A stretch of 9,884 nucleotides of DNA, taken from the IMG/VR virus record IMGVR_UViG_2648501669_000003, positions 1 to 9,884 of that record. One strand, given 5' to 3'. The notes beneath the pieces were generated by a model, which did no database searches, was not told where the DNA came from, and saw only the letters and a program-made list of their open reading frames with translations. Shown piece after piece: positions 8,293 through 9,787 of the stretch; position 1 is the stretch's first letter; each line of letters opens with the position of its first letter. A program made the translations under genes and the position numbers. The DNA comes from a virus. Taxonomy: Duplodnaviria; Heunggongvirae; Uroviricota; Caudoviricetes.

Positions 8293-8958
8293 TCAAACAA
8301 AACCTGCCGCTTTCCTGCGTTCATATTCCTGTTTCAGCAACTCAATTGGCGTTGGTCCCGCAGGACGTATGGGTGCTGCCAGTTGCCTACGGACGGGTGG
8401 AACACTCAGTCCGTTACCAACATGCTTTGCCCATTTCGCCAGTTGCCGTTCTGCAAGCCGTTTTAACTCCCCTTCGGTCATCTGGCGCTCAATCCCCTTT
8501 GAACGCATCTCGAGACAAATGTGATACAGCACAGGCTGAGACCACGGGTATTTATCGCTTCCGTCGTATCGCCAGGACTCGTTGCGCCAGCGTCGGTACT
8601 CCTCCATCACGTTATCCACCGTCAGACCAAATGGATTTGCCCCGCTCTCCGAAATCAGCGCCACAAACTCAGCCAAGTCCGGAGGCCATGTTTCACCTGC
8701 CCTGCAACGGTCCATGCACTGGCGGCAGACCAGCCGGATTTGCTGCTCAGTCATCGCGCCAATCTGTGCAATCCAGAGCTTCGAAGGTGCGGCCCCGTTC
8801 TTCTGGGTCCAGCGGTTCGAATAAACCTCCCCCATGAGTTCCCACAGCTTCCACGCCGTTTCCGTCGCTGATAAATCCATTTTCACGTTCCCACTGCTCA
8901 CGTGCTGCCCGAATTTCCTGAACTGCCCGTGATGCGGTGCCACCTGGTGCGGCTGCAT
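8293..8958 (-). CDS. Replication protein P-like (DnaB helicase loader); start uncertain
   Basis: The C-terminal 150 aa align by eye to lambda P (PPDLAEFVAL ... YPWSQ ... ELKRLAERQ). ATG at 8958 has a GGGGGTGA SD but makes a 212-nt out-of-frame overlap with the O-like ORF. Alternative in-frame ATGs lie at 8880 and 8754; the latter overlaps the O-like stop by 8 nt. Confidence 0.7.
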   Translation of the reverse strand: MQPHQVAPHHGQFRKFGQHVSSGNVKMDLSATETAWKLWELMGEVYSNRWTQKNGAAPSKLWIAQIGAMTEQQIRLVCRQCMDRCRAGETWPPDLAEFVALISESGANPFGLTVDNVMEEYRRWRNESWRYDGSDKYPWSQPVLYHICLEMRSKGIERQMTEGELKRLAERQLAKWAKHVGNGLSVPPVRRQLAAPIRPAGPTPIELLKQEYERRKAAGFV

Positions 8959-9787
8959 GGCTCACCCCCTTGCTGACTGGTTTAACCTGCGCCCTGACGT
9001 GATTTACGTGACGGGCGAATTTCTGCTCCCACTGAACCTGCGTAAATACTTTCCCCTCCGCTGCCCAGTAGTCCCGGAAGGCGGCAAGTTCAGCAGGTGT
9101 AAATTCCGGCTCCGGCAAAGCCATCCCCCACACCGCAGCCCGTCGTCGAAAATCCCGTGACGGATGCCAGCTATCGGTCATCGGAAATTTTCCGATGGGT
9201 TCGCTCAGGCCATCCAGGAATACGGGTGGCACTGCCTGTAACGACAAAACTTCCTGCTCACTGGTCGGAGCACTCTCGCGTGCATTATGTGTGGGGTTTA
9301 GATCTTTGGGTTCCTTTGGGTTCCGTGATCCGTTTTTGGGTGTCTTTGATGGAAAATTTGGGTGTCTTTGGTTATTTTCCATGCAGCTAAGAGTTCCGTT
9401 TTTGGGGCTGTTTTGTGCTGAAACATAACCATTTTCGGTACTGTTTTTATTAACAGTACCAATTTTACCCACCTTTAAAGACTCCCGTTTTTGGGTGTAT
9501 TCAGGCTCGGCAACGCTTTCTTCTACACCGATAAGTCGGTACACTACGATTTGCTTTGTTCGGCCTTTTCTCTCACCGGTATCAACAATTAACCCAATCT
9601 CCATCAGGTGTCGTAAGCTGTCCTGCACAGTCTTTTTGTTCAGCTCCGTTACTTCTGCCAGTGCAGATACAGACGGGTATGCACACAAATCGGCACCGCA
9701 CATATCAGCAAGCCAGGTCAATACTGACTTACTGGATGAACTGCCGGTTTTCACCTTTTTAGCCCATCGTAGTGCATCGATACTCAT
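8747..9787 (-). CDS. Replication initiator (O-like): N-terminal wHTH DNA-binding domain fused to a DnaT-like C-terminal domain
   Basis: The ORF-track start at 9862 is a TTG, so the ATG at 9787 ([11 protein letters not shown], GGGG upstream) was used. The N-terminus looks like a winged HTH. The C-terminal segment [61 protein letters not shown] matches the C-terminal region of E. coli DnaT as I recall it. The central linker is low-complexity and encoded by the iterons. Confidence 0.75.
   Translation of the reverse strand: [346 protein letters not shown]
9304..9499. repeat. Iteron array (putative phage replication origin) embedded in the initiator gene
   Basis: Direct repeats: ctttgggttc twice in tandem (9304-9313, 9314-9323); ccgtttttggg at 9330-9340, 9396-9406 and 9485-9495; tttgggtgtctttg at 9335-9348 and 9357-9370. 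An AT-rich block follows at about 9410-9480. This is analogous to ori-lambda inside gene O. Confidence 0.6.
9437..9460. repeat. 9-bp inverted repeat with 6-bp spacer inside the AT-rich part of the putative origin
   Basis: ggtactgtt-tttatt-aacagtacc; a perfect palindrome in the AT-rich segment. Confidence 0.4.

Follow-up and report, generated by a model that had tools for sequence, protein, structure and literature searches.

The DNA analyzed here, called the window, is a stretch of 9,884 nucleotides (nt) covering positions 1 to 9,884 of the Caudoviricetes record IMGVR_UViG_2648501669_000003, and our subject is a replication initiator gene in it together with the helicase loader gene that follows. 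The initiator gene (8747..9787, minus strand) begins with an ATG at 9787, ends with a stop codon at 8749-8747, and encodes a protein of 346 amino acids with the N-terminal sequence MSIDALRW. PHROG profiles identify the product as a replication initiation protein or "primosomal protein" (best E value, 1e-89). The second gene, on the same strand at 8293..8880, encodes a helicase loader of the lambda P family of 195 amino acids when counted from the ATG at 8880, and it overlaps the initiator gene out of frame by 134 nt (8747..8880), P being read in the +1 frame with respect to the initiator. The translated open reading frame (ORF) and an AlphaFold2 model divide the initiator into a winged helix-turn-helix (wHTH) domain, a linker, a DnaT-like domain, a helix, and a tail, all encoded on the minus strand.

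The wHTH domain comprises amino acids 1 to 82 (9542..9787), which AlphaFold2 models at moderate confidence as a winged helix with helices at residues 2 to 12, 20 to 29, 40 to 47, and 51 to 63 and strands at 67 to 70 and 79 to 82. The original prediction, made from the sequence alone, had included a wHTH origin-binding domain, and the model agrees with it, as do weak matches to HTH_36 (PF13730; 20.8 bits versus a cut-off of 25; E value, 3.4e-4), to RP-C in Pfam, and to the PHROG initiator families. The Phage_rep_O profile (PF04492) gave 12.4 bits on the initiator, under its gathering score of 28.7; lambda O itself scores 123 bits. We presume that the winged helix is the module that confers specificity for binding to iterons. 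The linker (amino acids 83 to 187) is predicted to be disordered and leads to a three-helix DnaT-like domain (amino acids 194 to 267; 8987..9208), which is predicted to bind single-stranded DNA (ssDNA). Downstream of this domain lie a helix recognized from the model and from its conservation (amino acids 287 to 302; 8882..8929) and a C-terminal tail (amino acids 303 to 346; 8750..8881) that is encoded inside the overlap with the P gene. The tail ends with LDCTDWRDD, and its predicted local distance difference test (pLDDT) values are mostly below 50, indicating disorder.

A likeness of the C-terminal region to the primosomal protein DnaT's C-terminal domain had been proposed on the basis of two peptides, one read from the initiator and the other given as DnaT sequence; the first corresponds to amino acids 232 to 259 of the translation, and the second matches a stretch of the Escherichia coli K-12 dnaT product exactly. 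The Pfam search fixed beforehand as the deciding check found the DnaT DNA-binding domain (PF17948) on amino acids 201 to 267 with 62.8 bits versus a cut-off of 25 (E value, 2.6e-17). BLASTP against the K-12 dnaT product aligned amino acids 194 to 266 with DnaT residues 82 to 153 (40 of 73 identical, 55%; E value, 9e-23), and a phmmer search of solved structures matched DnaT C-terminal domains alone (6aep, 4ou6, and 9zbt; E values of about 1e-19). The domain is modeled with pLDDT values of 94 to 97, and the top Foldseek hits for the model are 6aeq and 4ou6, with root-mean-square deviations (rmsd) of 0.9 to 1.0 Å and target template modeling scores of 0.84 to 0.92. The proposed identity of the domain is thus well founded.

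In the crystal structure of DnaT residues 84 to 153 bound to dT10, ssDNA is contacted by F124, Y127, W128, K133, F135, K143, R146, S147, I150, and G151 (PMC4132743). Seven of these 10 residues are identical in the initiator (F237, Y240, W241, K246, F248, K256, and R259), and the equivalents of S147, I150, and G151 differ. Because so much of this surface is retained, ssDNA is the best-supported candidate partner of the DnaT-like domain. What surrounds the domain in DnaT was not found. The NCBIfam DnaT equivalog model NF002770 scored 93.6 bits versus a cut-off of 201 and aligned at model positions 82 to 157 of 179 only, and neither this profile nor BLASTP revealed a counterpart of the N-terminal oligomerization domain of DnaT. 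BLASTP likewise aligned nothing to the acidic PriB-binding linker of DnaT, no separate test having been aimed at that linker, and comparison of the C-terminal end with that of K-12 DnaT showed that the motif (I/V)PxGF(R/K)(G/D), which is IPPGFRG in K-12, is absent from the end of the initiator.

In lambda O and in the initiator of Vibrio phage 199E37-1, a lambda-O-type C-terminal domain occupies the position equivalent to that of the DnaT-like domain. This domain (WANDIRLMRE...FW..NVLSP) gave no BLASTP alignment with the initiator, hhalign assigned a probability of 0.1% to a relationship between the two families, and Pfam detected no DnaT signal in lambda O. Remote homology between the two domains was considered and rejected, since Pfam, BLASTP, and hhalign all failed to relate them. 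Given the hhalign result and the missing Pfam signal, the DnaT-like domain is a nonhomologous replacement of the lambda-O-type domain, and the suggestion that it stands in place of a lambda-O-type C terminus was borne out in position, with no detectable homology.

The gene that follows had been called a lambda-P-like loader, correctly so: its ORF matches PF06992 (60.7 bits versus a cut-off of 26; E value, 2e-16) and the phrog_109 "P-like helicase loader" profile (E value, 7e-62). Both matches cover amino acids 20 to 220 of the longest ORF in this frame, which mechanically extends over 8293..8958 (221 amino acids), and three ATG codons were considered as its start. The ATG at 8958 was rejected, as substitutions in 8881-8958 follow the codon phase of the initiator. 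The ATG at 8754 is the start given by the Prokaryotic Genome Annotation Pipeline (PGAP), in GenBank records, and in the RefSeq records inspected (153 amino acids, starting MTEQQ), and it was rejected because homology in the P frame reaches up to about 8880 in relatives from E. coli, Citrobacter, Salmonella, and a Vibrio phage. The ATG at 8880 lies where the substitution phase switches, and it was rejected as a universal start, being found in just 4 of the 71 unique sequences, the majority of which have ACG at this position. Two codons upstream, at the position of window nucleotide 8886, a GTG is kept in 65 of the 71 unique relatives, and since the ATG is kept in so few, this GTG is probably the usual start codon of the family. 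The loader aligns with residues 81 to 203 of the lambda P structure sequence from its own residue 44 onward, and its residues 1 to 43 are the counterpart of the first half of domain II in lambda P; this segment, encoded in the overlap, is also conserved in Vibrio phage loaders (E value of about 1e-12 on the segment alone). As a start at 8754 would bisect domain II, the alignments favor a P protein that PGAP annotates about 42 residues too short, with the start placed 42 to 44 codons too far downstream. The annotation error affects a widespread prophage family and cuts a folded domain in half.

Through the 134-nt overlap, the same DNA specifies the tail of the initiator together with the first half of P domain II, so that the two are inherited together. 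Overlaps of 104 to 137 nt, again in the +1 frame, occur in all 18 nonredundant lineages with the DnaT domain, and all 73 loci with upstream sequence, three of them with initiators lacking this domain, have an overlap of at least 90 nt. These 73 loci were chosen by their P subfamily and not by the presence of a long tail protein, which avoids circularity. Diversity at the first, second, and third codon positions was computed over 71 unique relatives. It follows the initiator phase where only the initiator is encoded (0.070, 0.051, and 0.164) and in 8881-8958, including the helix region (8882..8929), and it follows the P phase both in 8750-8880 (0.024, 0.022, and 0.079), where total diversity is halved, and where only P is encoded (0.048, 0.022, and 0.177).

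One explanation of the tail (amino acids 303 to 346) is that it has no function and is a read-through into the 5′ region of P up to a chance stop codon, with selection acting on the P frame only. Several results weigh on this side, against the functional tail that we favor. Substitutions in 8750-8880 follow the codon phase of P, with the first codon positions of the initiator being the most variable; the terminal tryptophan of the tail alternates with arginine through changes synonymous in P; the tail is predicted to be disordered; and in one of three deep comparisons, that of the window with Vibrio phage 199E37-1, similarity of the tails did not exceed the null expectation for synonymous recoding. 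A tail motif, EERG, that might be taken for conservation in the initiator frame was discounted as a by-product of the KNG motif of P. The constraint on the tail sequence is thus weak, given the P-phase substitutions and the W/R alternation. The open frame itself is harder to explain as read-through. Throughout the overlap, the initiator frame is free of stop codons at all 73 nonredundant loci, although under synonymous recoding of P this frame would stay open by chance in 2 to 25% of cases per lineage, that is, closure would be expected in 75 to 98%; for about 12 independent lineages, counted by eye because automatic clustering at <70% split close relatives too finely, the probability of an open frame throughout is about 1e-12. 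Extension of the initiator through the overlap therefore appears to be maintained by selection. In addition, third-position diversity of P is halved in the overlap (0.079 versus 0.177), similarity of the tails exceeded the recoding null in the other two deep comparisons (P values of 0.004 and 0.04), and an LD..DW-like ending is also found in lambda O, whose overlap is only 4 nt. We consider a functionless tail unlikely.

Apparent fusions were seen in the same region. The profile phrog_15931 (482 positions) and at least one database protein, P0068, look like frameshift chimeras that start in the initiator frame and change to that of P inside the overlap, and they are probably sequencing or gene-calling artifacts and not real fusions.

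To relate the end of the initiator to the loader, 176 loci were classified and reduced to 37 nonredundant ones, the regular expression for tails being corrected by inspection for HWNSPEGWKDFI tails. Long tails like that of the window initiator are followed by a P-type loader in 18 of 18 nonredundant lineages, and so are short tails resembling the end of lambda O (LDWNNTDWI or HWNSPEGWKDFI) in 7 of 7. Tails ending in (I/V)PxGF(R/N)G are followed by a DnaC homologue in four nonredundant lineages and by no recognizable loader in seven. Long or lambda-O-like tails are thus paired with P-type loaders in 25 of 25 lineages and PxGF tails with DnaC-type loaders or none in 11 of 11; a P-type loader was found with a PxGF tail in none of these 11. 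The association appears not to reflect simply three old lineages, because similarity between the domains does not separate the tail classes: class-A domains share 82% identity with one class-C domain, whereas identity among class-A domains themselves goes down to 53 to 60%. Along its entire length, one of the phage DnaC homologues shares 51% identity with E. coli DnaC.

These data bear on the question of which part of the initiator meets the loader. The DnaT-like domain itself might bind P or the P-DnaB complex, as an equivalent of the lambda O C-terminal domain, with the tail being incidental. The domain does sit where the lambda-O-type domain sits, it is inherited together with P as one cassette that begins at about amino acid 161, and a fragment of lambda O comprising residues 156 to 299 is used as the P/DnaB-binding fragment in current work (PMC12661323). 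We nevertheless regard this as improbable: members of the domain family that are 53 to 82% identical to each other pair with DnaC-type loaders or with none, the same P subfamily is used by initiators with unrelated middle domains, and the loader type covaries with the tail. The same helix and tail are present in initiators without the DnaT domain when their loader belongs to this P subfamily, and the helix is kept as RAVQ.IR.AR..W.. among diverged clusters; it appears to belong to a tail specific for initiators paired with this subfamily. Loader specificity thus appears to reside in the tail that follows the domain and not in the domain, and the covariation points to a contact between tail and loader. 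Two points weigh against this: the tail and loader genes are adjacent, so that linkage itself adds to the association, and the nonredundant counts are small (four for DnaC-type loaders).

Among host-DnaT-like clusters nearly all proteins end in (I/V)PxGF(R/K)(G/D), the IPxGFRG tails of phage initiators are identical to the C terminus of host DnaT, and in K-12 dnaT lies 2 nt upstream of dnaC. We tentatively propose that the choice of loader may lie in the short C-terminal tail, P being docked by the helix and tail, and DnaC or DnaB-DnaC by the (I/V)PxGFRG of sister phages and also of host DnaT; on balance this general scheme is possible but doubtful. If it is true, encoding both in 134 nt of the same DNA would keep an interacting tail and P together through recombination, there would be an answer to how the helicase is brought in by the PriA-PriB-DnaT preprimosome, and the host dnaT-dnaC operon would descend from a phage initiator-loader pair. 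How DnaT recruits DnaB/DnaC was stated to be unknown in a 2026 preprimosome paper, which proposed the N-terminal domain for this role (PMC13377028); the C-terminal peptide of DnaT as the recruiter of DnaB/DnaC, instead of or besides the N-terminal domain, is a testable idea.

Several loci seen in the census deserve mention in their own right. At L098 (3324-4061), L104 (3379-4119), and L266 (1239-2518), an initiator with a DnaT-like C-terminal domain and a PPGF tail is followed by a DnaC homologue, which mirrors the host dnaT-dnaC operon and suggests that the gene pair as a whole is of common descent. The protein P0117 (172 amino acids) has a DnaT-like C terminus (…SEPDSHIPPG) that reads straight into a DnaC-like N terminus (…GDLMKRLQKMMPP…); it is a chimera of neighboring dnaT and dnaC genes, formed by read-through or a frameshift. 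The seven PxGF loci without a loader (L107, L110, L111, L126, L145, L148, and L150) have genes for RuvC-like, DUF977, and DUF1064 proteins downstream, and their initiators may rely on host DnaC. The one nonredundant locus outside these tail classes, L146 (2492-4918), encodes a DnaT-domain protein whose tail is only 8 residues long (AIKKFNET); the gene directly after it codes for a 568-amino-acid DUF4942 protein and not for a known loader.

A search run exhaustively over 1.84 billion representatives found the DnaT-like domain in just 136 clusters, about 22 of them host-DnaT-like and about 57 initiator-like. The N termini of the initiator-like proteins are of at least five types (HTH_36, DUF1376, DnaD_N, RP-C, Phage_rep_O, and others), and the loader that accompanies the domain is of the P type, of the DnaC type, or absent. 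Less was gained from word-indexed protein searches, which returned mainly fragments, from a genome scan (five loci), and from a third viral scan (mostly E. coli-type relatives); in two further cases the contig ended before the neighboring gene. Relatives of the 1.7-kb segment are present in 1,295 of 5,426 complete E. coli genomes, and further relatives come from PPompW prophages and from phage Rac-SA53, whose initiator is called "primosomal protein I". In the PGAP annotation, the orthologue, which has identical coordinates, bears the name "DnaT-like ssDNA-binding domain-containing protein", and the gene after it is "replication protein P". The fusion of a DnaT-like domain with an initiator is therefore already recognized, by Pfam, PGAP, and the PHROGs as well as in the DopC/DopE publication, and the architecture is not new because the same pair has been published as DopC/DopE (PMC5509034).

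The original prediction had gone on to describe the pair as a mosaic of two helicase-recruitment strategies, and this part did not hold. From DnaT, just the C-terminal domain that forms an ssDNA filament is present; the N-terminal domain and IPPGFRG are absent, and a second recruitment strategy is thus unsupported, because the absent N-terminal domain is the DnaT element proposed to recruit DnaB/DnaC. Nor is the pairing unusual, as a P loader occurs with a DnaT-like domain in 25 nonredundant lineages and in about a quarter of complete E. coli genomes.

Among 89 related loci, 38 align along the whole gene pair and 45 solely from about amino acid 161 onward plus P, their N-terminal halves being replaced. 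Since the latter share only this part, the wHTH-and-iteron half and the half comprising the domain, the tail, and P are separate recombination modules. The homology breakpoint, at about window position 9300 (initiator amino acid ~161), lies directly downstream of the iteron region and marks a module boundary. In Actinobacillus phage vB_Apl-pPE4 (L007; PP818812.1), a record assigned to Actinobacillus pleuropneumoniae, the C-terminal cassette and the P gene are 93% identical in nucleotide sequence to those of E. coli prophages, and a query with the N-terminal part of P gave 99% protein identity to E. coli prophages, which is unexpected for a phage of Pasteurellaceae; this cassette may be E. coli-derived sequence.

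The DNA that encodes the disordered linker contains iteron-like direct repeats of two families, D1 and D2, and an AT-rich patch (9305..9502), identified from the repeats and the composition profile and presumed to be the replication origin. The sequence CCGTTTTTGGG occurs as three exact 11-mers at 9330, 9396, and 9485 (0.23 expected), and TTTGGGTKYY occurs as four 10-mers at 9305, 9315, 9335, and 9357 (0.23 expected). The G+C content falls to 30% at 9420-9479, with repeats around this patch. The wHTH domain would bind to these repeats inside its own gene. Relatives with other N-terminal domains have different internal repeats. In L093 and L096, whose N-terminal domain is another one, two intragenic 28-nt repeats (3149-3176 and 3358-3385, spaced by 209 nt) contain the palindrome GTAACGCTGGCAGCGTTAC, apparently iterons of another type that go with another specificity module.

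Taken as a whole, the protein is, in our view, slightly more probably than otherwise the origin-binding initiator of a lambdoid prophage of the Rac/PPompW type and is composed of three parts that can be exchanged, namely, a specificity module, an ssDNA module, and a loader-adaptor module. In the mechanism we propose, the wHTH domain would bind to the iteron-like repeats within its own gene, as lambda O does. The DnaT-type domains of the assembled initiators would then most likely bind to and oligomerize on the ssDNA of the melted origin, by analogy with the C-terminal domain of DnaT, which forms an ssDNA filament (PMC13377028), and such a filament would hold the bubble open as a landing site for the helicase. 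The helix and the disordered tail, judged by their covariation with the loader, would act as an adaptor specific for the P-type loader, which would bring host DnaB. Alternatively, the DnaT-like domain might dock on host PriA; the initiator would then draw in or divert the PriA-PriB restart machinery and would not act on origin ssDNA. This reading has in its favor the 55 to 57% identity to the host DnaT domain, which includes many surface positions, and the binding of that domain to a conserved hydrophobic patch on the HD2 and C-terminal domains of PriA (PMC13377028), but it is very unlikely, as the alignment is limited to DnaT residues 82 to 157, with no counterpart for the N-terminal domain and the PriB-binding linker region, and PriA would not be needed for helicase delivery by an initiator that is equipped with a DNA-targeting domain and served by a dedicated loader.

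The neighboring genes fit a lambdoid prophage. Genes for Cro/CI and YdaT lie upstream in relatives, and genes for DUF977, DUF4406, Hok, DUF968, RusA, a Q-like protein, and a DNA methylase lie downstream; these genes place the locus in a lambdoid prophage early/nin region. In the window, the nin region includes a gene for a Hok/Gef-family toxin (4058-4210, minus strand; PF01848; E value, 1.2e-23). Two adjacent ORFs without a Pfam match (4501-5244 and 5248-5670, minus strand) are probably paralogues, because the N-terminal motif …ALASLEAEPVAW… is common to both.

Close known systems include the genes annotated as YdaU "primosomal protein I" and "YdaV" in Rac-SA53 and their counterparts in PPompW, in which the C-terminal cassette and the P gene are 92 to 95% identical in nucleotide sequence. 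The Rac-SA53 protein differs in having a DUF1376 N-terminal domain and not the wHTH domain of the window, and its ydaU/ydaV names were carried over by position from the Rac prophage of K-12. The initiators with IPxGFRG tails and a DnaC homologue (L098 and L104) share the domain family and the position in the early operon and differ in that their tail matches the end of host DnaT, their loader is of the DnaC type, and the genes do not overlap. With E. coli DnaT itself, the initiator shares a homologous three-helix C-terminal domain (55% identity; rmsd of about 1 Å), but DnaT is targeted to DNA through PriA and PriB, whereas targeting of the window initiator would be through a predicted sequence-specific wHTH domain. 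The resemblance to lambda O and P lies in the N-terminal origin-binding domain, the intragenic origin, the C-terminal part acting together with the loader, and the adjacent P-family gene; unlike lambda P, the window P lacks domain I, and the genes overlap by 134 nt in the window versus 4 nt in lambda.

The same two-gene architecture is seen in DopC/DopE, described in Cellvibrionales and Oceanospirillales by Brezellec et al. in 2017 (PMC5509034). DopC consists of HTH_36 and a DnaT C-terminal motif found with HHpred, and DopE is lambda-P-like. The authors derived the pair from lambdoid O/P genes, with the lambda O C-terminal domain replaced by the DnaT motif, and treated this motif as a substitution within a domesticated gene (PMC5509034). 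Compared with the published description, the window pair likewise combines an N terminus that resembles HTH_36 below the profile cut-off and a DnaT motif in one protein, followed by a PF06992 protein. DopC and DopE, however, are resident chromosomal genes without iterons in bacteria lacking dciA and dnaC, whereas the window pair belongs to a prophage, has iteron-like repeats, and resides in an E. coli host with dnaC. Because phage initiators with iteron-like repeats already have a DnaT-type C terminus, this feature is not peculiar to the domesticated genes, and that of DopC need not be an adaptation to domestication.

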